A DNA stretch of 64,000 bases, from the NCBI GenBank assembly GCA_046350795.1, contig JAXLZT010000001.1, positions 389,164 to 453,163 of the forward strand, written 5' to 3'. The position numbers were made by a program, and so were the translations under genes. Positions 1,779 through 60,281 of this stretch are shown here, piece by piece. A model generated the notes under the pieces. The model searched no databases and was not told the DNA's origin. It saw only the letters and a program-made list of their open reading frames with translations. Origin of the DNA: Minisyncoccota bacterium (GTDB lineage: Bacteria; Patescibacteriota; Minisyncoccia; Phycocordibacterales; CALRHW01). The first letter of the stretch is position 1. The number at the start of each line of letters is the position of its first letter.

Positions 1779-2201
1779 ATGAAATCATCAATTAAAGTTT
1801 TATTAGCGAGTTTTTGTATGGTGCTGATTTTTTCTGCTAGCTTTGCACCGGTTTTTGTGCAGGCAAAAATACTTAGAGGTATCATTCCTTGTGGCAATTC
1901 ATCAAGTGGTGCCACCCCAGGTCAGATAAAAGCAGAAGAATGCAACTTTGGTGATCTACTTGCCCTGGGTCAAAATATTATAAAGACATTAGTTCTTTTA
2001 TCTATACCTATTACGGCTATAGTTTTTTGCTGGGCAGGATTTTTGTATCTATCTTCGGGTGGTGATACAAGTAAAATAAAACAAGCTAAAGAGATTTTTT
2101 GGAAAGTAATGTGGGGATTTATATTCATTCTGACAGCTTGGCTCATAGTATATGCTGCCACATCGCTTTTGGCGCCCGGTTTTAGTTTCTTATTGAAATA
2201 A
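1779..2201 (+). CDS. small membrane protein with C-terminal two-TM module (member 1 of paralogous array; VirB2/TrbC-pilin-like?)
   Basis: Signal peptide. The C-terminus (AIVFCWAGFLY...GG.TS..KQAKEIFWKVMWGFIFILTAW) aligns with the FFWG...WG..LFVMFS.WG family of the next genes. Confidence 0.5.
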   Translation: MKSSIKVLLASFCMVLIFSASFAPVFVQAKILRGIIPCGNSSSGATPGQIKAEECNFGDLLALGQNIIKTLVLLSIPITAIVFCWAGFLYLSSGGDTSKIKQAKEIFWKVMWGFIFILTAWLIVYAATSLLAPGFSFLLK

Positions 2202-2215
2202 TATATAATAAAAAC

Positions 2216-2713
2216 ATGAAATTTTTATTCACAGCACTTTTTACTCTAGCACTATCATCGTTTTTTGTTTTTACTGCGCACGCTCAAATGCTTCCAGAGC
2301 CGATGGATGCTGGTGGAGGTTATAGTGCTGGTGACACATCATTTCCTGGTCCAAATGGCCAGGGCACATCATTTCCTGGTCCAAATGGTCAAGGTTCCTC
2401 TTTTCCAAACCCATTTGGAAATACCAGTAACACAAACAGTCTTTCTGGTTTTGTACAGTTTGCTCTTGAAAAAATAGTTTTGCCTATCGGTGCAGTTGTT
2501 GTCGTGTTTTTTGTAATATACTCCGGATATCTTTTTGTGACGGCAAACGGTAGCGAAGACAAGCTTGAAAAAGCAAAGCACACATTTCTCGGTGTCGTGA
2601 TTGGCGCAGCAATACTTTTAGGATCTTGGACTATAGCTAGTGCAATAAAAGGTACTCTGTGTGAGATTGCGCCAAGTATTCCGGGTTTGTGTGGTGGTAG
2701 CAATAATCTTTAA
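2216..2713 (+). CDS. small membrane protein with SFPGPNGQG repeats plus C-terminal two-TM module (array member 2)
   Basis: Signal peptide. Three tandem 12-aa Gly/Pro repeats are encoded by a 36-bp direct repeat at about 2336-2410. The C-terminal two-TM module is homologous to the neighbouring genes. Confidence 0.5.
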   Translation: MKFLFTALFTLALSSFFVFTAHAQMLPEPMDAGGGYSAGDTSFPGPNGQGTSFPGPNGQGSSFPNPFGNTSNTNSLSGFVQFALEKIVLPIGAVVVVFFVIYSGYLFVTANGSEDKLEKAKHTFLGVVIGAAILLGSWTIASAIKGTLCEIAPSIPGLCGGSNNL

Positions 2714-2724
2714 TAAAAAAATTC

Positions 2725-3024
2725 ATGTGTCCATCCACCCCCAAAACATTTAAAGACGTCATCTGCATCTTTTTGGATTTGTTTAGTTTGATTATCCCGC
2801 TTTTGGCCGGACTGGCTCTTTTGGCTTTCTTTTGGGGTTTAGCAAAATTTATTTACAACGCTGGTAGTGAGTCTGCTCGAGAAGATGCAAAAAATGTAAT
2901 GTTCTGGGGAATTATTGGTCTATTTGTGATGTTTTCTATTTGGGGTATCGTCTCTTTCTTTACCCAAGACTTCTTTGGTGTAAGTTTTACTGGTCTACCA
3001 AGGTTGCCAGTTTTCCAAAATTAA
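2725..3024 (+). CDS. small two-TM protein, FFWG..WG family (array member 3)
   Basis: LLAFFWGLAKF...AREDAKNVMFWGIIGLFVMFSIWG. This is one of six near-collinear paralogs. Confidence 0.55.
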   Translation: MCPSTPKTFKDVICIFLDLFSLIIPLLAGLALLAFFWGLAKFIYNAGSESAREDAKNVMFWGIIGLFVMFSIWGIVSFFTQDFFGVSFTGLPRLPVFQN

Positions 3025-3028
3025 TGTC

Positions 3029-3361
3029 ATGAAGTATTTTTTAGTAATCTTTTCTTTGCTCTTACCGATTTTTGCACACGCTGCTGTTTCAAATGCGCGT
3101 GATCTCATACTAGCCGTCACTTCTTTGATTACTTTGGGTACTCCGATAGTCGCCGGTATTGCCCTCGCTGTTTTCTTCTGGGGTCTTGCTAGATTTATGT
3201 ATCATTCTGACAGCGAGGATTCAAAAGAAGAGGGGAAAAGAATAATGTTTTGGGGGATTATAGCTCTTTTTGTAATGTTTTCTGTGTGGGGTCTGGTCAC
3301 TTTTGTGGCTTCGGGCTTGGGAGTAGACGCCCATCCTGCAAACATGCTTTACGAGTTTTAG
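3029..3361 (+). CDS. small two-TM protein, FFWG..WG family (array member 4)
   Basis: Signal peptide followed by AVFFWGLARF...SKEEGKRIMFWGIIALFVMFSVWG. Confidence 0.55.
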   Translation: MKYFLVIFSLLLPIFAHAAVSNARDLILAVTSLITLGTPIVAGIALAVFFWGLARFMYHSDSEDSKEEGKRIMFWGIIALFVMFSVWGLVTFVASGLGVDAHPANMLYEF

Positions 3362-3454
3362 AGCTATTCACAACAAGCATTGTTTTTGTCTAGCCTTGTA
3401 GTATGATTATTGTATAGTTTTTGGATAATTATTAGTTAAGTAATTTTAAGAAAG

Positions 3455-3802
3455 ATGAAAAAAGTTATATTAGGAGGTGCAATGTTTTTTCTTCCCGCAT
3501 TTGTGTTTGCTGCAGAAGCCCTAAACAATGTTTACGGTATTATTCAGTCTATAGGTCAGATAGTGAGTGCTGTGATTCCAATAGTTTTTGCTCTTATCTT
3601 GGTTTATTTCTTTTGGGGTCTTGCAAGATTTGTCCTCAACTCAGGTGATGAAGACGCTAGAAAAGCGGGCCGTGGAATGATGATCTGGGGTATCGTAGCT
3701 CTTTTCGTAGCTGCTTCTGTGTGGGGTCTTACTGAGTTTATCGGAAAAGCACTTGGTATAAATGATGTTCAGGGTGTTCAGGTTCCTGGTATCTACAACT
3801 AG
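3455..3802 (+). CDS. small two-TM protein, FFWG..WG family (array member 5)
   Basis: Signal peptide followed by VYFFWGLARF...ARKAGRGMMIWGIVALFVAASVWG. There is a promoter-like AT-rich spacer upstream (3362-3454). Confidence 0.55.
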   Translation: MKKVILGGAMFFLPAFVFAAEALNNVYGIIQSIGQIVSAVIPIVFALILVYFFWGLARFVLNSGDEDARKAGRGMMIWGIVALFVAASVWGLTEFIGKALGINDVQGVQVPGIYN

Positions 3803-3814
3803 TAGTTACAATAA

Positions 3815-4078
3815 GTGATGACTATCAATACGCTTCTCAATAAGATTATTTCTGTAATACTCCAACCCATTGTTGTTTTGATGTTTGTGGTGGCTTTGAT
3901 GGTATTTTTCTGGGGAATTGTCCAGTTTATAAACACATCAAACACAGACGACGGTAGGGAAAAGGGGAAAAGAAATATCTTGTGGGGGGTTGTTGGAATG
4001 TTCATAATGTTTTCTGTGTACGGAATCATTCACATCATTTTACAGACGTTTGGCATTCCATCTCCATCGTATCTTTAA
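3815..4078 (+). CDS. small two-TM protein, FFWG..WG family (array member 6)
   Basis: MVFFWGIVQF...GREKGKRNILWGVVGMFIMFSVYG. Confidence 0.55.
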   Translation: MMTINTLLNKIISVILQPIVVLMFVVALMVFFWGIVQFINTSNTDDGREKGKRNILWGVVGMFIMFSVYGIIHIILQTFGIPSPSYL

Positions 4079-4193: not shown

Positions 4194-4904
4194 TCATCGC
4201 TGTTGTTCGGTCAGGTCACAGATTGCGGTGTACTGAAACACCTTGTTTCCGGACGTCGACGCTGGTCTTGACCGGAAAGCCATTACTGGCCCCGTCAGTT
4301 TCTCTCTTCCGAGATCAATCTGTCGCCCAGGCAGGTGTTTGGCTTTCACCACTCCACCATCGGCTTGCTGGAGCTCTAGGTCGAGCTCCTTGTCTGAAAG
4401 AATGGTTACTTTCTTGACGTTTGATGGCAGGTTTTGCCAATCCGACCACACCCCCGGCTCAGATGTGATCAGCAGGTTTGTCGAGCCAGCAACACTTGTT
4501 GCGATCACTTTCGGCGTTGAAGCCCTTACCACCAGACCGATCACACCAGAAATGGCCACAACAAAAGACGGTACCAAGATGATCAGGATCCACACGATCT
4601 TGAGGATCTTGCCCCAGGACCACTTGCGCGGGTCTGGACGAATCCAGAAGAGGGTGGCGATGAGCAGGATCACTCCACCAATCCATGCCAGGACCGGCCA
4701 CATGGAAGACCAGATGGCATAGAAGTCCGGTGGAGTGACGCTCTTTGAGACGATGCCGACGATGATAAACGTCGCCAGCAGACTGATCATTGTCAAAGCA
4801 TTCTTGGAGAATGCTTGAGTTTTGATCCACTTGGTAGCGACCTTCCTGTTTCGCCAACCAAGAACGACTCGATTGGTCACGTTTTTTCTCAGCCAATTCT
4901 TCAT
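4194..4904 (-). CDS. GC-rich membrane protein (three N-terminal TM helices plus a roughly 110-aa soluble C-terminal domain); possible NfeD-like partner of the adjacent SPFH protein
   Basis: Perfect SD (AAGGAGGTGAA) 2 nt ahead of the ATG at 4904. The composition is GC-rich. The product assignment is inferred only from its adjacency to the SPFH gene. Confidence 0.45.
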   Translation of the reverse strand: MKNWLRKNVTNRVVLGWRNRKVATKWIKTQAFSKNALTMISLLATFIIVGIVSKSVTPPDFYAIWSSMWPVLAWIGGVILLIATLFWIRPDPRKWSWGKILKIVWILIILVPSFVVAISGVIGLVVRASTPKVIATSVAGSTNLLITSEPGVWSDWQNLPSNVKKVTILSDKELDLELQQADGGVVKAKHLPGRQIDLGREKLTGPVMAFRSRPASTSGNKVFQYTAICDLTEQQR

Positions 4905-5115: not shown

Positions 5116-6300
5116 TTACTTGCCGTCGTTGGAAAGAGGCAATGTCACCCCAGGTACTTGACCAAGGACCAGTGTTCCCTTGACTTGGGAGTACTTGTCT
5201 GCCATGTACATGGCAGCTCCAGCACCATTGCCGGCGGTAGCAATCGCACCATAGCCCTCAGCTTGCGCTTTGAGCATGGCTTCTTCACCCTTTGCCTTGG
5301 CGACCAGATTGGCCTCCTCAACATTGGCCTTGGCTTTACCCTCGGCTTCAATGCCGGGAGCAGCAGCCAACTTCATCTCAGCTTCTTGACGTGCCCGCTG
5401 GATTTCCAGCTGGCCTGCGATGTACTCAGGTGGGGCTTCGATGGCCACAAGTTTGATCTCGACGATCTCTTGTCCCACCGTTTCCATGATACCGGGGTAT
5501 TCTTTGTCCCCGATCACCACCTTTTCGTTGACTGCCATGAGCGCTTGGATGAGTTCTGAGTTAGCCTCAATCCTTCCACCAGACGTTGTCAAACCCTTGA
5601 TGATTGTCTCAAAGGTTCGTCCTTCCTTGCCTGCGTACTGAAGCAGACCAGAAAAGATTGCCACCTTGACCCTGTTGATCCAGTCGCCCGGATTTGATGA
5701 GGTGCCAAAGAGTGTCTTGTGGACGTTTCTCGTTCTCAGCTGTACTGAGAGACGAAACTTCAGCTTGTTCTGTTTGCTGTCTTCCACTCCATCGATCTCC
5801 ATTCCGTACTGGTATGTACAAAAATGGAGTTGGATTTCCTCGGGTTCATGTGGGACGATCTTGTCGCCATCCACTTTTTCCCAAGCAAATTTCCACCTCA
5901 ATGGCTTGAAAATCGGATACCATCCGATCCACTCATAACCGTAGAGGCGGTGGATGAAGCTTCTTTCAAAGTCTCCTGGGAGTACTTCTCCACTGCCACT
6001 TGGACAGAGATGCTCACCCTTTTTCCAGTGAAACATCTTGTGCACGGTGCCACCATGCATGACCACCGCGTCGCAGTTTTCCTGCGCTTTGATGAAGAAT
6101 TTGGTGCCTCCATCAACCTTCGGATCGGCGAGCCGAGCGATGATGACACCGCACACCCACCAAGCCAGAAAGGTCAGACCACCCACCATGGCAATGATGC
6201 CGAGTGTGATGAACGCTGACACCGGTCCAAAGACCAGCCATGACAGGACGAATCCTGCCACGAGGGAGAACCAGAAAGACCAGCTCTTGAGAAAATTCAT
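5116..6300 (-). CDS. SPFH/band-7 (flotillin/YqiK-like) membrane protein, GC-rich
   Basis: Two N-terminal TM helices. The C-terminal region is rich in E/A/K/Q repeats (QLEIQRARQEAEMKLAA...AEGKAKANVEEANLVAKAKGEEAMLKAQAEGY), typical of flotillin-like proteins. SD AAAGGGGTG. Confidence 0.55.
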   Translation of the reverse strand: MNFLKSWSFWFSLVAGFVLSWLVFGPVSAFITLGIIAMVGGLTFLAWWVCGVIIARLADPKVDGGTKFFIKAQENCDAVVMHGGTVHKMFHWKKGEHLCPSGSGEVLPGDFERSFIHRLYGYEWIGWYPIFKPLRWKFAWEKVDGDKIVPHEPEEIQLHFCTYQYGMEIDGVEDSKQNKLKFRLSVQLRTRNVHKTLFGTSSNPGDWINRVKVAIFSGLLQYAGKEGRTFETIIKGLTTSGGRIEANSELIQALMAVNEKVVIGDKEYPGIMETVGQEIVEIKLVAIEAPPEYIAGQLEIQRARQEAEMKLAAAPGIEAEGKAKANVEEANLVAKAKGEEAMLKAQAEGYGAIATAGNGAGAAMYMADKYSQVKGTLVLGQVPGVTLPLSNDGK

Positions 6301-6358
6301 TGCGCACCCCTTTCAAAAGGTGTTAGTTGTTTATCTACCCAGAGGTCAATATCGTGAA

Positions 6359-6375
6359 AGTGGCAACGTGCCACT
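6359..6375. promoter_or_regulatory. perfect palindrome AGTGGCA-ACG-TGCCACT in the 5'UTR of the SPFH gene
   Basis: 7-bp inverted arms lying between a TTGACT/TATACT-like promoter (about 6405-6435, minus strand) and the SD. Confidence 0.3.
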
Positions 6376-6456
6376 TGTGTGTGATTACAAAAAACTCCAC
6401 CCTGATTAGTATAACAAAATACTACAAAAGTCAAGATTAGATAATCTCCACAAAAG

Positions 6457-6541
6457 TGGTGGGCGAGGGGAGAGTCGAACTCCCATGGATTACTCCACTA
6501 GTTCCTAAGACTAGCGCGGCTACCAATTACGCCACTCGCCC
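6457..6541 (-). tRNA. tRNA-Leu (anticodon TAG)
   Basis: Hand-folded cloverleaf. Acceptor GGGCGAG/CTCGCCC, anticodon loop CTTAGGA, long variable arm, T-arm GGGAG-TTCGACT-CTCCC. Confidence 0.8.
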
Positions 6542-6593
6542 AAATTTTTAAAAAATACCTATTGTCGGTCACTGCTTTCTTCGCACAACCGAG

Positions 6594-6666
6594 TCCGCCC
6601 ACCAGGATTCGAACCTGGGACCCACCGCTTAAGAGGCGGTTGCTCTACCAACTGAGCTATGGACGG
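6594..6666 (-). tRNA. tRNA-Lys (anticodon CTT)
   Basis: 73-nt cloverleaf. Acceptor CCGTCCA/TGGGCGG, D-arm GCTC-AGTTGGTA-GAGC, anticodon loop CTCTTAA, T-arm CCAGG-TTCGAAT-CCTGG. Confidence 0.8.
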
Positions 6667-6763
6667 TTATTAAACCTTGGTTTCAAACTACCAAAACAGC
6701 TATGGACGGTTATTAAACCTTGGTTTCAAACTACCAAAACAGCTATGGACGGTTATTAAAAGT
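6658..6763. repeat. 2.4 tandem copies of a 43-bp unit that begins inside the 5' end of tRNA-Lys
   Basis: The unit gctatggacggttattaaaccttggtttcaaactaccaaaaca repeats with exact 43-bp period (tatggacggt at 6658, 6701 and 6744). Confidence 0.85.
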
Positions 6764-6785
6764 ACATTTTATTTAATACCGTATC

Positions 6786-6834
6786 CTACATAAAAGAATA
6801 GAGCCGGGCAAGAACAAGTCGTGCCACAGGCTCT
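6786..6834 (-). terminator. GC-clamp hairpin with ATTCTTTTATG tail
   Basis: AGAGCCGGGCA...TGCCACAGGCTCT stem, downstream of the 83-aa membrane-protein gene. Confidence 0.4.
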
Positions 6835-6865
6835 GGGGTGGGGAGATGGCGACTGTGATGGTGGC

Positions 6866-7117
6866 TCATCCGTGAGCGGTCTGACGCATCAGAAACGCGT
6901 GGTGCTTCTTGGCCAGTATCTCTGACACAACCAGAATGTTCACCGCTGCAATCGTGACGGTCACCAACATGCAAAGCATCGCTGGGAAGATCGGCCAGTA
7001 GAGGAAGTCCTTGGTGGTCTGGTGCTGGTACATGAAGTACACAGCCATGACCGCAACCACCAGGCCGATCAAGTCCGTCAGTATGAGCCACCTGATCTGG
7101 CGGCGCAACTTTTTCAT
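6866..7117 (-). CDS. small GC-rich two-TM membrane protein (83 aa)
   Basis: Two hydrophobic helices. SD AAAGGAA precedes the ATG at 7117. Preferred over the overlapping 128-aa ORF 6786..7172. Confidence 0.45.
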   Translation of the reverse strand: MKKLRRQIRWLILTDLIGLVVAVMAVYFMYQHQTTKDFLYWPIFPAMLCMLVTVTIAAVNILVVSEILAKKHHAFLMRQTAHG

Positions 7118-7261
7118 GCCATTGTTCCTTTTCAGCTAGTGTTTGTCGCATCTCCACGACCGGAACTGTCATTTTTTACGATTATGACAGCACCCACATT
7201 ATCTAGTTTTTTTTGATAAAAGTCAATAAAAGTAATACACATATATCGGATTCTTGTATTG

Positions 7262-7309
7262 GTTGAAAAATAAAATCCGCCGGACACCACGAACGTGGGC
7301 CGGCGGATT
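7262..7309 (-). terminator. hairpin AATCCGCCGG...CCGGCGGATT with T-rich tail on minus strand
   Basis: 10-bp GC-rich stem followed on the minus strand by TTTATTTTTC. Confidence 0.4.
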
Positions 7310-7342
7310 GGCGGAGGTGCGAGTTGGTTTGCAGGGATCGGG

Positions 7343-7678
7343 TCAAACACAAATGACCAAAGTCCTGTTGACGTGAAGTCTGATGTCTGTGATGAGCTCG
7401 TGGTCATCACTGCCGACGAGCGCTTGGATGATCTGCGACAGCTTGTTGAGGATCAGCCCTCGAATCGAGCTTGGCACCTCGGAGATTGCCAAGGTGATCA
7501 TCAAAGCCACCCCCTCCGGAGAGAATTCGTCCCCAGCCTTCTTGAGGAGAAGGTGATTGAATCCTTTCAGGTTTAGGTTGTCGATCGAAAACAGCCGATC
7601 ACACAGCTGGTTGTGTGGTGGGAGGACGATCACCTTCGTCTCACGGCCACACCGATCATTGTTCTCACTTGTCCGCAT
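7343..7678 (-). CDS. GC-rich hypothetical protein (111 aa)
   Basis: ORF with SD-like GAGAGG and its own terminator. A palindromic operator-like site lies upstream. No recognisable domain. Confidence 0.4.
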   Translation of the reverse strand: MRTSENNDRCGRETKVIVLPPHNQLCDRLFSIDNLNLKGFNHLLLKKAGDEFSPEGVALMITLAISEVPSSIRGLILNKLSQIIQALVGSDDHELITDIRLHVNRTLVICV

Positions 7679-7733: not shown

Positions 7734-7932
7734 CTCACCTGAGCGCAGACAAGAAAGAAATATATCACGATAAATAGAGTGGGTCAAATAAGAGGGGTGT
7801 GAGTATCTTTTGTTCAAGTTATACTTTGTGTTTTTTTATCCACCACTTTTTTATAGCAGGTAGATATTGTATAGAAATAAAAAATCCTCTTGAGGTTTTT
7901 TAATTTTTTCTTCCATGTTTAAATCCTAAATG

Positions 7933-8016
7933 TGCCCAGGGCGGGAGTCGAACCCACAAGAGCTTTCGCCCACAACATTTTAAGTGTTGCGCGTATACCA
8001 ATTCCGCCACCTAGGC
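7933..8016 (-). tRNA. tRNA-Leu (anticodon TAA)
   Basis: Cloverleaf with acceptor GCCTAGG/CCTGGGC, anticodon loop CTTAAAA, long variable arm, T-arm GTGGG-TTCGACT-CCCGC. Confidence 0.8.
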
Positions 8017-8487
8017 ATTTTTTCTATTTCTTCCACGATGAGTTGTTTTTAGACTATGGCAATTTGGACAAAGAATTCTTAGGTTTTCTAATCTGTTGTC
8101 GTTATGTTTACCATTAATATGATCCAACTCTAGAGGTAATCTACCATCTTCTGACCATTTTGCCCACCCGCATTCTTCACACATAGCTTTCATTAAACCA
8201 TCTCTTAGTAACCTTTTTTTAAGTTTAAAACTCTGATAGGTGCTATTTTTAATAAGGATTTTTTCAATAGGGATTATTGGTTTGCCAATGCCAATCAGTC
8301 CTTTATTCCAGCTTTTTCCTTTAAAATGGTCAATGGGTATTTTGTATAACTCAATGAACTTCTTTATTTGAGAATAATTGCCACCCGCAGGAATAAGCTT
8401 AAGTTTTTTAATGACTTGTCGTGTACTCGTAGAAGAAAGACAGGCCTCTAATAGTTGGGCCTTTGTCCAAGATTTTTTTCTCTCCAT
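8011..8487 (-). CDS. HNH endonuclease
   Basis: C-terminal HNH motif LELDHINGKHNDNRLENLRILCPNCHSLKT. The start was moved to the internal Met (MERKK) because the longer ORF runs through tRNA-Cys. The stop codon overlaps the 5' end of tRNA-Leu(TAA). Confidence 0.6.
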   Translation of the reverse strand: MERKKSWTKAQLLEACLSSTSTRQVIKKLKLIPAGGNYSQIKKFIELYKIPIDHFKGKSWNKGLIGIGKPIIPIEKILIKNSTYQSFKLKKRLLRDGLMKAMCEECGWAKWSEDGRLPLELDHINGKHNDNRLENLRILCPNCHSLKTTHRGRNRKNA

Positions 8488-8547
8488 ATAAAAAAGTATA
8501 CCTACCTGAGATAATGGAAATCTAAAGAAGTTATAGAGAAACACTAG

Positions 8548-8621
8548 AGGCGTAGGTCGGGGTTGAACCGACGTATAGCAGTTTTGCAGACTGCCGCGTT
8601 TACCAACTTCGCCACTACGCC
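8548..8621 (-). tRNA. tRNA-Cys (anticodon GCA)
   Basis: 74-nt cloverleaf. Acceptor GGCGTAG/CTACGCC, anticodon loop CTGCAAA, T-arm GTCGG-TTCAACC-CCGAC. Confidence 0.8.
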
Positions 8622-8651
8622 TTCGTAGAGACACATCCATTTATACCATAT

Positions 8652-18933: not shown

Positions 18934-18997
18934 TATATGGTAAACACAGTCACGGAAAGCTCATTCCCAACTTCAACTCAACAGAAAGGGGGGTCAC

Positions 18998-19645
18998 ATG
19001 ACTCTTCAACAAATCTTTGCCATGTCCTCGGCGGTTCTCATGGTCATTGGTTCGGTGTGGCAGGTGTATGTGGCGATTCGTTATCCAAAGAAGGTCAGAC
19101 CAACTCTCGCGAGCTGGATCATCTTCTCCACCACTTTGACGTTGTCGTTTGTCACGTACTGGACCACCAAGGAACGAAACCTGGTGTCCAACGCAGCAAA
19201 CGCATCGGCAATGGTGGGTGCGCTCATTGTGTTTCTCGGAGCGCTGGCGATGCACATTCGAAGTGGTAACAAGTTGGCGTTCTCGCGCTTCCAGAAGGGA
19301 AGTCTGACATGCGCCAGCTTGATCGCTCTCGTGTGGGTCGTGATGGTTTGGGGTTTGGGATATAGCGGCCTTGTGCCAAACATCCTTACCCAAGTACTCA
19401 TGATCATTGGTTATTGCGTCACGGCCGACAAGGTGTGGCGTGCGACGAGCACTTCGGAGTCCTTCTTCTTGTGGTGGTGCATTTTCGCCTCTAGTATGCT
19501 GGGACTTGTCCCAGCGTGCGCGAGACTCGACGCTCTTGCGATCTTGTATGCCACCAGAGCCACTGTCTGTACCGGTCTTCTCCTGATCCTTCTGTATCGG
19601 ATCAAGAGTCGGTCGTCGCAGGCAAGTCTGGTCACCGTGGTTTGA
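18998..19645 (+). CDS. GC-rich 6-TM membrane protein (215 aa), paralog of 45634..46194
   Basis: Hydrophobic multi-TM profile. Shares the ASWI...GAL(I/L)V...SES(F/W)(F/W)LW motifs with the island protein at 45.6 kb. The antisense ORF 18950..19654 was rejected. Confidence 0.5.
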   Translation: MTLQQIFAMSSAVLMVIGSVWQVYVAIRYPKKVRPTLASWIIFSTTLTLSFVTYWTTKERNLVSNAANASAMVGALIVFLGALAMHIRSGNKLAFSRFQKGSLTCASLIALVWVVMVWGLGYSGLVPNILTQVLMIIGYCVTADKVWRATSTSESFFLWWCIFASSMLGLVPACARLDALAILYATRATVCTGLLLILLYRIKSRSSQASLVTVV

Positions 19646-19704
19646 GGGCTCCACTCATGAGTTGGATGTAAGGTAGCGAGGTGGGTACCATAACTCCACC
19701 CAAA

Positions 19705-23649: not shown

Positions 23650-24375
23650 TCACTTGGCGATAGCCAGGGTCAGATCTGGGTGCGGCTCATAGCCCAAAGG
23701 CGTTGGAGCATCATCACGTAGTCCGCAGACCACGGATATGAGCTGTACGGCATTGTCCCGGCCCACCTTGACTGTGCTACTTGGTGCCGGCGTGTACCCC
23801 TCCCCGAGCTCAAAGCCGACCGCTTTGATGAGCTCGATGTACGGCACCCCAAGCGTGTCATCTTCAGCACCACAGTTGGGCGAGAAGTCTTCGATCAACT
23901 GTGGAAACACCAGAGTGTCTAGGATTTGCTCCATTTTGGCAAAGAACGCAAGGCTGAGCAGGCCAATCCTCGATCCACAGCAACTTGGCTTGTGCGAGAA
24001 CATGTCATCGACTCGTCGACTGTATCCATCGATGAGTGCTGCATAGTGGCGATCGAAGATGCCGTTGCCACCAGATATATTCCAATAGCCAAGGAGATGA
24101 TCAATGCTTTTTGTGTGTCCTGTTCGGTCAATGTACCGTTGCATGATCTCACGCGCTTCTGGATGGCGTAGGTGCTTTGCCGTCTTATCCATCCAGACCT
24201 GATGCTTGCCTCTCATGAACAGGGCTCGGTGGATACCGGCCACCCTTTTGAGACCCAGAACCTTCTCTTCTCCGTAGCAACGAAGTGCAGACTCGATCGC
24301 CCGGCTGAACTTGGGGCTCATTTCTCCCAGTAGTGCTCGTGCCTCCACTTGCCCAGCTTCTTCTTGCGTCATCAT
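23650..24375 (-). CDS. GC-rich soluble hypothetical protein (241 aa)
   Basis: Long ORF with SD GAAAGG. No recognisable motif. Confidence 0.5.
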   Translation of the reverse strand: MMTQEEAGQVEARALLGEMSPKFSRAIESALRCYGEEKVLGLKRVAGIHRALFMRGKHQVWMDKTAKHLRHPEAREIMQRYIDRTGHTKSIDHLLGYWNISGGNGIFDRHYAALIDGYSRRVDDMFSHKPSCCGSRIGLLSLAFFAKMEQILDTLVFPQLIEDFSPNCGAEDDTLGVPYIELIKAVGFELGEGYTPAPSSTVKVGRDNAVQLISVVCGLRDDAPTPLGYEPHPDLTLAIAK

Positions 24376-26508: not shown

Positions 26509-26916
26509 CTAGGTCATGCGATCTTCTTCGCCTTCTCTGGAGAAATGGAGATCGCTGGGAATCATGCCCCTTCTGATCACGTCCACCCAGTCAATGAACT
26601 CCTCTGTTCCGGCATACTTGCCGTTGACGTGCCTTTTCACGATGATGCCATTTCTTTCTGATCTGACGAAGCACCAGTTGGTGGGAAACGGAGCATCTCT
26701 TCGTGGTTCGACGATCACAGAGTCTCTTGTCGCGGTCTCAAAGAGACGCACGACCGCCTCTATGTCTCGATCATGCTTGTGGTCCGGAAGATTCGGGGGC
26801 TGGTCATCTGTGACCTTTGCCCGCTTTTCCCTTTTCTGCACAAAAAAGGTGATGAGTACCACGATTGCAGTCATCAGTGTGCCTGCACTCACGATGACGA
26901 TTTGTTCCTTGTGCAT
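26509..26916 (-). CDS. GC-rich small membrane-anchored protein (about 135 aa from the internal Met)
   Basis: SD AGGAGAA precedes the ATG at 26916. One TM helix (LMTAIVVLITFFV). Palindrome AGAGCA-CAA-TGCTCT at 26956-26970 and a TTGACT promoter at about 27004. Confidence 0.4.
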   Translation of the reverse strand: MHKEQIVIVSAGTLMTAIVVLITFFVQKREKRAKVTDDQPPNLPDHKHDRDIEAVVRLFETATRDSVIVEPRRDAPFPTNWCFVRSERNGIIVKRHVNGKYAGTEEFIDWVDVIRRGMIPSDLHFSREGEEDRMT

Positions 26917-27050
26917 ATGCTTCTCCTGATGAGTTGGTGTTGTGTACTTGTTTTTAGAGCACAATGCTCTTCCTAAACTATTTTTATAATAGATTTATAT
27001 ATAAGTCAAGTATTTTATACGCATTCAAATAATGCTAATCTTAGAAATAC

Positions 27051-29469: not shown

Positions 29470-30237
29470 ATGAAAGCATGGACTCAAGTCCCCGCTGGCG
29501 ACATCAATGCCGCCAATCAACGTCTGTGGGGAGCGATCGGCGACAACGCCGAAGAGGTCGCAGCCCGCATCAACACCGACCCTGCGTTCGTGGCGAACAT
29601 CGCACGACTCATGGTCAATGGCGGTTACGAGCCGTCAACGTCACAGAAGCTCGCCCGCGAGATCATGGGCAAGAACTTCTTCGGTATCGAGGAGGCGATC
29701 AAACACTTCGGGGTTAATCCCACGAAGCAACAGCTCGCTTGCTTGGCTGAAGTTCCGTGGAGCGAGGAAGTGCTGAAGTCATGCAAGGACACGCACGTTC
29801 TCGTCGCCGTCTTTCCGCTGTCGATCCTCGACATCCGTGGACACGCCCGAAAGCAGTCCGACCGGACCCTGTTTTACTCACAGGACTGGTATGACAAGCA
29901 GGCCTTCGCCAAGGACAAGGGCGAAGTCGGCTGGCAGTTGGTCCGCAAGGAACCGATCGCCAACTCGACCTCGAAGATGTGGAACGATCAACAGGCACTC
30001 CTCTCGAAAGACGAGGAAACTCCGACTGCTCGGATCGTGGTTTACACCATGGTCGGCCACCTCCTCGCTACTGGAGAGCGTCTGTTCGAGAAGATCTACG
30101 TTCGTTGCGTCGATCTCGACTCGGACGGTGACCGCGTCAGCGTCCGCGGCTTCGATGCCGGGGGTCTCGTCGTCTACGGCTGGTGCGGCGGCGACCGCGA
30201 TTTCAGCATCGGCTTGTCGGCTGCCAGGAAGCAGTGA
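29470..30237 (+). CDS. very GC-rich hypothetical protein (255 aa)
   Basis: Long ORF in a stretch of about 60% GC. The alternative-frame ORFs are GC-content artefacts. No recognisable motif. Confidence 0.5.
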   Translation: MKAWTQVPAGDINAANQRLWGAIGDNAEEVAARINTDPAFVANIARLMVNGGYEPSTSQKLAREIMGKNFFGIEEAIKHFGVNPTKQQLACLAEVPWSEEVLKSCKDTHVLVAVFPLSILDIRGHARKQSDRTLFYSQDWYDKQAFAKDKGEVGWQLVRKEPIANSTSKMWNDQQALLSKDEETPTARIVVYTMVGHLLATGERLFEKIYVRCVDLDSDGDRVSVRGFDAGGLVVYGWCGGDRDFSIGLSAARKQ

Positions 30238-45633: not shown

Positions 45634-46194
45634 TTATCTGAGAACCAGCACTGTCATCGTGGTGTTCAGGACGAAGCATCCGCATGGGATGAGACGCTCC
45701 TCGATTGTCCACTTCTTTGCTCCATAGCAGGAAAGGACGCAAGAGAAAGCGACACCAGCCCATAGCCACCAACTCTCTGAGTTCGGTTTCAGCCACGCAT
45801 CATACATGGCTGGAAACGCAGCGATCGTCATGGCGGTCATGCAAGCGACGATTGCCAACTTGGGGCCAGATCTCCACCAGCAGATCACCGCGACTGCCAT
45901 CCCGATGGCAGAGATCATTTCCACCAGACCCCAATGCCACGTTCCTTTCCCGAGAAGGATGATCGTGACGAGGAGAGCTCCGAGTGTGAACCCAGCAGGA
46001 AGCCAGGGTCGCTTGTTGCCGGCTGCAACGCAGCCAACAAGGATCAGGGCATCAAGCACTGTCCACATGATCCAGCTCGCTGTATTCTGGGGTAAGTCGT
46101 GTACCATCAGATAGACAGCGAAGGCGACGATCACGATCGTCGAGATCAATCCTCCAATCAGACCGATTCTCTTTTTCAAGAGTTCGTTTTGCAT
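45634..46194 (-). CDS. GC-rich 6-TM membrane protein (186 aa), paralog of 18998..19645
   Basis: Shares the ASWI, GAL(L/I)V and SESWWLW motifs with the 215-aa island protein. SD GAAAGG. Inverted repeat GGCCGCAT...ATGCGGCC upstream at 46244-46286. Confidence 0.5.
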   Translation of the reverse strand: MQNELLKKRIGLIGGLISTIVIVAFAVYLMVHDLPQNTASWIMWTVLDALILVGCVAAGNKRPWLPAGFTLGALLVTIILLGKGTWHWGLVEMISAIGMAVAVICWWRSGPKLAIVACMTAMTIAAFPAMYDAWLKPNSESWWLWAGVAFSCVLSCYGAKKWTIEERLIPCGCFVLNTTMTVLVLR

Positions 46195-52255: not shown

Positions 52256-52759
52256 ATGACGAAGACGTCATTAAAGTTTCGTGTCCGAACTCACGGGATT
52301 GTGGTTGATGTTCGACAAGACAGCAAGTGGGTCAATGCAATTTCTGTGATGGCCGTCATGCGTCCCGGCTCTTTTGATGTGAGCCGGGTAGGCGGACTCT
52401 ATCCTCCCGTTGGTAATGGGATGATCAAGAAGAGCCTCACTCTGCTGAATTTCCCAGAAGGTGACGGTGGTTTGGACAGTGCTGTTGTTTGGGCCAAGGA
52501 TAATGGCCTGAAAACAGTCGAACCACGTTCACTTTTTGCCATCAAGACGGCACACCCCGGACTTCACAAGAAGATCGGTCAGGGTGGGGTAGTTCTCGTG
52601 GAGACTGTCGGATGTACGCTGAATCATACTGGCTTCCCTGACAAACGCCATCTGTGTTGCGTTGTCTTGGGGGACGGTGTGCCCGCTGTCGGACTGTTTC
52701 CGGTCAACCAATTCAACGGCTTTGGTAGCCACGACACCTGGTTTGTGTTTAGTGACTAG
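52256..52759 (+). CDS. GC-rich hypothetical protein (167 aa)
   Basis: ORF flanked by its own consensus promoter and terminator. No recognisable motif. Confidence 0.5.
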   Translation: MTKTSLKFRVRTHGIVVDVRQDSKWVNAISVMAVMRPGSFDVSRVGGLYPPVGNGMIKKSLTLLNFPEGDGGLDSAVVWAKDNGLKTVEPRSLFAIKTAHPGLHKKIGQGGVVLVETVGCTLNHTGFPDKRHLCCVVLGDGVPAVGLFPVNQFNGFGSHDTWFVFSD

Positions 52760-55967: not shown

Positions 55968-56018
55968 GTTGGAGACGTTCTTAATGTTCGACCAATGTCC
56001 ATCAACTCAGGAGGTGTC

Positions 56019-56513
56019 ATGTCCACGACGACAGAACCAACTATCGCCTGTCTGGAGGACAGGAAGAGTCTCATCGAGGCGGCCGTGAAGAGACTCATCG
56101 AAGACTGCGAAGGTCAGCTGCTGGTGAAGAAGGGAGAACGGGCGAATATCACCATCACGCTCGGGGTCGGACTATCCGATGAACGACCCCACCATTCGTT
56201 CAAGGTGGATCTCAAGGTGCAAAGCAAGTCTGACAGGATGCGCACCCTGGGTCCTGTCACGACTGTAGAGGAGTGGTCGCGACTGAGCAATCTCAGCTTC
56301 CGGTCTCCAGCCATCGCCGAGTTCATCCAAGCTCTCAAGCCAGTTGCTGGCAAGTCAAGATCTGCTCGCGCCGGAGATTTCTTCCGGTATGGCAACGAGA
56401 TTCACAGCATCAATCAGAAGCTTCGTGACAGCGACATTCGAATGAGGGTGAGAGGAACATATGGGGGCATGTTCCAAGATCGCCACTTCACTCTCGTGAG
56501 AGTGGGGCATTGA
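56019..56513 (+). CDS. GC-rich hypothetical protein (164 aa), candidate toxin-like partner of the upstream ncRNA
   Basis: SD AGGAGGTG sits 5 nt before the ATG at 56019 (the alternative upstream ATG at 55995 lacks an SD). No recognisable motif. Confidence 0.5.
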   Translation: MSTTTEPTIACLEDRKSLIEAAVKRLIEDCEGQLLVKKGERANITITLGVGLSDERPHHSFKVDLKVQSKSDRMRTLGPVTTVEEWSRLSNLSFRSPAIAEFIQALKPVAGKSRSARAGDFFRYGNEIHSINQKLRDSDIRMRVRGTYGGMFQDRHFTLVRVGH

Positions 56514-59840: not shown

Positions 59841-60173
59841 CTAGCCGATCTGCAGGATTTTGTTCCTGCTGATAGAGCCGAGCTTGGTGCAGACGCCGTC
59901 CACCTTCTTTTTCAGTCTGGTGGATCGAATGTCGTACGGCACGGGCATCAGGAGCGCCGCCTTCAGAAAGGCAAAGACGTTCTCGTACCACGATTCCGCA
60001 TCACAGATGGCTGTGGCATCATTGAACAACGCGGTGTTGCTCGTCGATGGTGGGTTGTGTTGCACAGATGTGCAGATGGTCTTCGAGTCACCGGTCTCAG
60101 CGGAGCTGTGGGGTGTCGAAGTCAAGCACATGATTGCGCACAGAAGGGCGAGAATGCCCACGATATTCCGCAT
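59841..60173 (-). CDS. GC-rich small secreted/lipoprotein-like Cys-containing protein (about 110 aa)
   Basis: SD GGAGGT sits 7 nt before the ATG at 60173. Signal peptide LALLCAIMC with possible lipobox. Confidence 0.45.
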   Translation of the reverse strand: MRNIVGILALLCAIMCLTSTPHSSAETGDSKTICTSVQHNPPSTSNTALFNDATAICDAESWYENVFAFLKAALLMPVPYDIRSTRLKKKVDGVCTKLGSISRNKILQIG

Positions 60174-60253
60174 GGTCTGTACCTCCATCACTAGGGGTTG
60201 GAAAGAGCACGACTCGACGCTGGAACTTCTTCTACCCGGAACTACCTTGGGAT

Positions 60254-60281
60254 ATTATATGCTAGTATTTAAATAATTCAA
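60254..60281 (-). promoter_or_regulatory. sigma70-like promoter TTGAAT-16-TATAAT
   Basis: Consensus -10. Divergent from the start of the SPOUT methyltransferase gene. Confidence 0.4.

Follow-up and report, generated by a model that had tools for sequence, protein, structure and literature searches.

A 43-bp tandem repeat at the 5′ end of tRNA-Lys(CTT) in a Paceibacteria species group, probably a neutral repeat-length polymorphism

The tRNA-Lys(CTT) gene of a Paceibacteria species group overlaps, at its 5′ end, a tandem array of 43-bp units whose number differs between strains. With good confidence, we read this array as a lineage-specific VNTR, or minisatellite, in the 5′ leader of the tRNA gene, formed by local duplication, changing by whole units, and most likely neutral. 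It is an ordinary VNTR-type repeat-length polymorphism in an unusual position, since the repeat overlaps the 5′ end of a tRNA. All coordinates below are those of the window, the whole 64-kb stretch of DNA that was analyzed.

Array structure and gene neighborhood

TRF reported a period of 43 bp at 6655 to 6760, with 2.5 copies (2.47), 100% matches, 0 indels, and a score of 212, which is the arrangement expected of a VNTR or minisatellite (head-to-tail units of at least 10 bp at high identity). The original prediction of a 43-bp tandem repeat at 6658 to 6763 was right about its existence and its length (106 nt), and TRF places it 3 nt further left. It was also right that the unit includes the start of the tRNA; the array covers the first 12 nt of tRNA-Lys (CCGTCCATAGCT) instead of the predicted 11, with 31 nt of upstream sequence per unit instead of 32.

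On the plus strand, the layout is A-B-A-B-A, in which A (AGCTATGGACGGTTATTAAA, 20 nt) comprises tRNA nt 1 to 12 and 8 nt of leader and B is CCTTGGTTTCAAACTACCAAAAC (23 nt). On the tRNA strand, TTTAATAA CCGTCCATAGCT GTTTTGGTAGTTTGAAACCAAGG occurs twice and is followed by the genuine tRNA. The blocks were located by pattern searches. The proximal A copy (6655 to 6674), identified also from the sequence and the tRNA call, contains the genuine tRNA nt 1 to 12 and 8 nt of leader. It is followed by the first B copy (6675 to 6697, with a shuffle test), the second A copy (6698 to 6717), which is a decoy tRNA 5′ end with its 8 nt, the second B copy (6718 to 6740, with a strain comparison), and the distal A copy (6741 to 6760, with an alignment to relatives).

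An imperfect periodicity reaches 10 nt deeper into the tRNA, to nt 22 (nt 13 to 22, 6645 to 6654). A repeat search matched 6645 to 6687 with 6688 to 6730 at 93% identity over 43 nt, with 3 mismatches; on the tRNA strand, the upstream units read CCGTCCATAGCT-GTT-TTGGTAG and the gene reads CCGTCCATAGCT-CAG-TTGGTAG. The in-register 7-nt run in this extension has a P value of about 0.001 in a shuffle test. On the same strand, the first 10 nt of B resemble tRNA nt 13 to 22, and its last 13 nt are TTTGAAACCAAGG, for which no source was detectable. The suggested search for the 43-mer elsewhere in the genome gave no other occurrence of the unit, of A (20 nt), or of B (23 nt) within the 64-kb window at up to 3 mismatches, and 0 of 100 shuffles matched.

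tRNA-Lys(CTT) itself is intact (6593/6594 to 6666), as judged by ARAGORN, Rfam (71 bits), and alignment with relatives. Its downstream neighbor, tRNA-Leu(TAG) (6457 to 6541; tRNA call and relatives), belongs to the same conserved tRNA pair. On the other side of the array, alignment and sequence delimit a distal flank (6761 to 6834) with a terminator-like hairpin (arms AGAGCC at 6800 to 6805 and GGCTCT at 6829 to 6834), a T-run, and an AT-rich promoter-like stretch; the scan of 6300 to 7200 scored neither a sigma-70-like promoter nor an intrinsic terminator. Upstream of the array lies an 83-aa ORF (6866 to 7117), identified by ORF calling and comparison with relatives as a lineage-specific predicted membrane protein. 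The array and its parts, both tRNA genes, the distal flank, and this ORF are listed on the minus strand.

The gene order is solute-binding protein (SBP), several T4SS-pilin-like genes, a 236-aa ORF, a 394-aa ORF, tRNA-Leu(TAG), tRNA-Lys(CTT), and the array, and then the 83-aa ORF, a 111-aa ORF, tRNA-Leu(TAA), an HNH gene, tRNA-Cys, RbfA, IF-2, DUF4446, a trypsin-like protease, and ClpB. The T4SS_pilin (PF18895)-like run comprises six or seven small genes (1779 to 4078) beside the solute-binding protein gene, an order kept in all relatives retrieved; one of these genes (ORF 2216 to 2713) contains a tandem repeat of its own, 30 bp × 2.0 copies with 93% matches (2335 to 2394). NCBI lists the 394-aa neighbor as a hypothetical protein from a “Candidatus Paceibacterota bacterium” MAG. 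Among species-representative genomes, the nearest exact matches to the tRNA 5′ half came from Paceibacteria or Saccharibacteria MAGs, and the scan found three distant Patescibacteria whose tRNA 5′ half is similar and which lack the repeat. A pattern scan of metagenome contigs gave one match, at an unrelated tRNA-Lys(TTT) locus.

Alleles among strains

Independent assemblies of the same species were retrieved by exact-protein look-ups. A 1.47-copy allele (A-B-A) is read through in Logan contigs L003 (SRR14271371) and L004 (SRR13287460) and in an NCBI MAG contig, L014 (GCA_964417815.1, 137 kb), all with flanks about 99.4% identical to those of the window; the unit that they lack is 6698 to 6740. 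Another NCBI MAG, L018 (GCA_044220815.1), has A-B-A-B-A with every array base equal to that of the window, in flanks that are ~95% identical. Copy number differs between strains by whole units and the flanks are conserved, as in VNTR loci.

The window comes from a metagenome-assembled genome, short k-mers do not easily cross an array of 106 bp, and only 1.47 copies appear in other assemblies, all of which would suit an extra copy created by short-read mis-assembly. A de Bruijn simulation at k = 31 bears on this. The 1.47-copy allele gave no breaks, and the 2.47-copy allele gave exactly two branch nodes, with unitigs ending at 6684 on the left and beginning at 6731 on the right. Window position 6684 is where Logan contigs L001 (common to four samples) and L002 (from an additional sample) stop; the end of L015, whose sample also yielded L001, is at 6731. 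These contigs stop at the predicted branch nodes, which exist only if the B-A-B junction (CCAAAAC-AGCTATGGACGGTTATTAAA-CCTTGG) is in the reads; the junction is therefore present in reads of several samples, and L001, L002, and L015 would each carry at least 2.47 copies, as is predicted for samples SRR16370917 and SRR26348414. The independent MAG, with the same 2.47-copy array in a diverged background, and the predicted graph breaks together establish that the array is real and that two alleles, one unit apart, coexist in nature. An assembly artifact, which the original prediction had named as grounds for dismissing the repeat, is contradicted by both observations, and we give it next to no credence. 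The array changes by whole units. Because the window and the more divergent L018 both have 2.47 copies, contraction in the clade of L014 would be the most parsimonious history.

Strains of this species also differ at a free-standing HNH endonuclease gene (an ORF within 8011 to 8640, minus strand) located between tRNA-Cys and tRNA-Leu(TAA) (7932 to 8016), in the region 7802 to 8546. The gene is present in the window, L015, L016, and L020 to L022 and absent from L003, L014, L018, and L019. In strains lacking it, the site is occupied by a 33-nt spacer and a tRNA-Leu(TAA) allele only 81% identical to that of the window; this HNH-less allele is also the form found in the distant relative L009. The cassette seems to have brought along a tRNA-Leu allele of its own and about 110 nt, much as homing endonucleases do when their flanks are co-converted. 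A tie between array copy number and this cassette was considered and rejected, as L018 has 2.47 copies and no HNH gene.

Relatives without the repeat

Homologs of the 394-aa protein were found on a JGI contig, L009 (79% aa identity), and on the more distant L010 to L012 and L013 (46 to 49% aa identity). L009 to L013 have in common the order gyrA, methyltransferase, SBP, pilins, 236-aa gene, 394-aa gene, and the tRNAs through RbfA and IF-2. L009 and L010 to L012 reach the tRNAs, with tRNA-Lys(CTT) followed by tRNA-Leu(TAG); L009 and L011, which extend further, also include tRNA-Cys and tRNA-Leu(TAA), so that all four tRNAs stand in window order. In L009 and L010 to L012, tRNA-Lys is 100% identical to that of the window over the whole tRNA, and there is no second copy of its 5′ end. 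TRF found no tandem repeat in L009 or L011. A search for intermediate lineages through homologs of the 111-aa neighbor returned only that protein itself and L011, and no single-copy intermediate with a window-type leader was found.

In these relatives, the sequence immediately upstream of tRNA-Lys aligns with the distal flank of the window, right up to the distal A copy. The aligned architecture is a terminator-like hairpin, a CTTTTAT motif, an AT-rich promoter-like stretch (TATAAAGATAA in relatives, TATTAAATAAA in the window), and then CCGTCCATAGCT about 20 to 25 nt on. The tRNA of the relatives therefore starts, with respect to the terminator- and promoter-like region, at the position taken in the window by the distal A copy. 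By this alignment, the predicted promoter lies upstream of the extra 43 or 86 bp, whose insertion point is within the stretch of leader and tRNA 5′ end.

The slot between the conserved 111-aa gene and tRNA-Lys (window 6761 to 7342) differs in each lineage. It contains the 83-aa membrane ORF in the window, where L018 has an apparently decaying version, an unrelated 159-aa ORF in L011 (1589 to 2366), and nothing in L009 (5539 to 5658).

The repeat had been described as lying exactly at the boundary of a GC-rich island. GC-rich ORFs in fact flank it on both sides, at 5116 to 6300 (52%) and 6786 to 7678 (52 to 54%), and inside this block the array occupies an intergenic gap of low GC content. The genes for the 236-, 394-, and 111-aa proteins have about 52% GC against a background of 31 to 43%, and the homologous segments in L009, L010, and L013 are equally GC rich in equally AT-rich surroundings. 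On this comparison, the “GC-rich island” is an old, syntenic feature of the lineage and not a repeat-bounded insertion. Since the GC-rich flanks are syntenic in relatives that lack the repeat, there is no island whose arrival the repeat could mark. Conservation of the repeat in relatives without the islands, which had been proposed as a refutation, is the reverse of what is seen: the relatives keep the “island” and have no repeat.

Across the window, GC content is bimodal gene by gene, with about a dozen ORFs at 50 to 59% among genes at 31 to 43% and AT-rich intergenic DNA between them. These ORFs are at 4194 to 4904, 5116 to 6300, 6866 to 7117, 7343 to 7678, 18950 to 19654, 23650 to 24375, 26509 to 26964, 29470 to 30237, 45634 to 46194, 52256 to 52759, 55995 to 56513, and 59860 to 60276. 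None reaches a Pfam curated cut-off; the 236-aa ORF has a sub-threshold match to DUF4149 (18.9 versus 24.6 bits). They are dissimilar to one another, and those with homologs in relatives are syntenic and GC rich there.

Integration at the tRNA

A relic of site-specific integration or excision was the first origin that the original prediction put forward. A tyrosine-integrase element would have entered the 5′ part of tRNA-Lys with its own 5′ fragment and later been lost, leaving the A copies as scars, and an element whose attP contains TTTAATAACCGTCCATAGCT would be expected. Islander requires that a tDNA and an end fragment cognate to it be properly configured, that an integrase gene lie between the two, that the element span 2 to 200 kb, and that the crossover fall in the anticodon loop or at the T-loop/acceptor junction (PMC4383910). 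The A copies at 6698 to 6717 and 6741 to 6760 do match tRNA nt 1 to 12 as direct repeats on the same strand as the gene, and a 5′ tDNA fragment upstream of its cognate tDNA in the same orientation is a configuration that Islander accepts. Of 3,919 catalogued islands, 3,760 displace a 3′ fragment and 159 a 5′ fragment (PMC4383910). Just past the identity block, the decoy has GTT where the tRNA has CAG, a divergence common in displaced fragments, and the gene content of the slot upstream of tRNA-Lys varies among relatives.

The remaining observations fit poorly with integration. The copies are tandem, 43 bp apart from start to start and separated by only 23 bp, far from the 2 to 200 kb of an Islander element. 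No integrase lies between fragment and tDNA, and Pfam found no recombinase or integrase among the neighbors from window position 1 to about 14.7 kb. Known tDNA att crossovers fall in the anticodon loop or at the T-loop/acceptor junction (PMC4383910), whereas identity here ends in the D-arm, exactly at nt 12 and imperfectly, with mismatches, at nt 22. Apart from the array, blastn-short found no tRNA-Lys fragment in the 64 kb, which likewise hold no other A copy. Within the collections searched, no mobile element, whether phage, plasmid, or integrative, had a matching attP: viral contigs gave 0 matches in three exact-pattern scans, megablast gave none in plasmids, and distant blastn against phage records gave a single match, to 31 nt resembling a tRNA. 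What distinguishes the strains is exact 43-bp units rather than an element that some have and others lack, and the flanking GC-rich genes are ancestral and syntenic. The 23-bp spacing, the lack of a nearby integrase or distant att copy, the end in the D-arm, and the ancestral flanks all argue against integration, which we regard as very unlikely.

Possible function of the array

In a functional leader array, tRNA-Lys(CUU) would be transcribed or processed by RNase P under the influence of the decoy 5′ acceptor and D-arm strands, or of a palindrome in B to which a protein binds, and copy number would tune the effect. Between the window and L018, the array has 0 differences, and nearby non-coding DNA is ~8% divergent. 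Each unit also has CCGUCCA, which could pair with the 3′ acceptor strand of the tRNA, and the minimum-free-energy fold of the precursor takes extra outer pairs from the upstream decoy. However, allowing for homogenization between copies leaves about 31 to 43 independent array positions, for which we estimate a P value of about 0.04 to 0.09. Selection on the array, considered on the basis of its perfect conservation in L018, was accordingly judged not significant; the excess conservation is weak and could hint at constraint.

When folded, the precursor keeps the cloverleaf with a z-score of −2.19, which is largely owed to the tRNA itself, and the unit folds no better than shuffles (z of −0.24 and 0.12). 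No promoter was found inside the unit by scan, manual −35/−10 combinations reach at best 2 to 3 of 6 in the weaker hexamer, and Rfam gives nothing in the unit below an E value of 1 except tRNA and tRNA antisense. The array is dispensable for the tRNA, since close relatives lack it and have an identical tRNA. A functional array thus seems very unlikely, and neutral expansion of the leader is the most likely reading. In a more specific version, which we hold to be highly improbable, pairing with the 3′ acceptor strand would be contested between the genuine 5′ strand and the repeated 5′ acceptor and D-arm strands in the pre-tRNA, and this competition would tune the processing of tRNA-Lys(CUU) by RNase P. 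If this were true, a Patescibacterium with a reduced genome could heritably switch its supply of one lysine isoacceptor by gaining or losing a unit.

Origin and significance

The original prediction also offered slippage duplication of the tRNA promoter region. Slippage is supported as the means of copy-number change, as strains stand one 43-bp unit apart; the promoter, on the other hand, is not the duplicated part. What each unit repeats is the tRNA 5′ end with the 8 leader nucleotides that precede it, and the conserved promoter-like region lies upstream of the whole array.

The history that we favor, that of a locally formed VNTR, would begin with an ancestor containing ...GTACTTTTAATAA|CCGTCC...CAGTTGG in single copy. 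In the ancestor of the species group, one local event would have inserted 43 bp across the boundary of leader and tRNA 5′ end, giving A-B-A. The insert would be a second copy of leader positions −8 to −1 and tRNA nt 1 to 22, joined by 13 nt of filler and with a CAG-to-GTT change. The x.47 structure counts against a plain VNTR reading, because simple tandem duplication should yield whole copies; it is suggestive of template switching or error-prone repair instead of simple slippage. A founding event of this kind (30 nt duplicated, a 13-nt filler, and CAG to GTT) is one that we infer and do not observe directly, which also weighs against the VNTR reading. Once in place, direct repeats of 20 nt (30 nt if imperfect matches are included), 43 bp apart, would allow replication slippage or unequal recombination to add or remove units, so that strains now have either the 1.47- or the 2.47-copy allele.

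The functional tRNA would be the promoter-distal copy, untouched by these changes. If the array is transcribed as leader, the pre-tRNA leader would be lengthened by 43 or 86 nt and then removed by RNase P; because the promoter is predicted to lie upstream of the array, the longer leader is the only consequence that we would expect.

Bacterial VNTR or minisatellite loci, such as intergenic MLVA and MIRU-type loci, change by slipped-strand mispairing or unequal recombination. The array resembles them in its head-to-tail, near-perfect units of tens of base pairs, its intergenic location, its whole-unit differences between strains with conserved flanks, and its lack of mobility genes. It differs in that a functional tRNA gene contributes its first 12 (22) nt to the unit and in having just 1.5 to 2.5 copies, a fractional A-B-A form, and a putative non-standard founding event with a 13-nt filler. 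In tDNA-PCR typing, length polymorphism of tRNA intergenic spacers distinguishes closely related strains. There too, length varies in non-coding DNA beside conserved tRNA genes, although the cause here is a specific 43-bp unit that copies part of the tRNA. The Islander signature (PMC4383910) shares with the array a direct repeat of a tRNA end fragment in the gene's orientation, with the 5′ fragment upstream, but not the integrase or the spacing, and the array is polymorphic in 43-bp steps.

A tRNA fragment beside a tRNA is not by itself evidence of integration, and because the GC-rich block is ancestral, this region should not be annotated as an att-bounded island. The locus can serve as a strain marker, and it also breaks short-k assemblies. 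Its biological weight is small; it is a tidy case, in uncultured Paceibacteria, of part of a tRNA gene being copied in tandem without damage to the gene.
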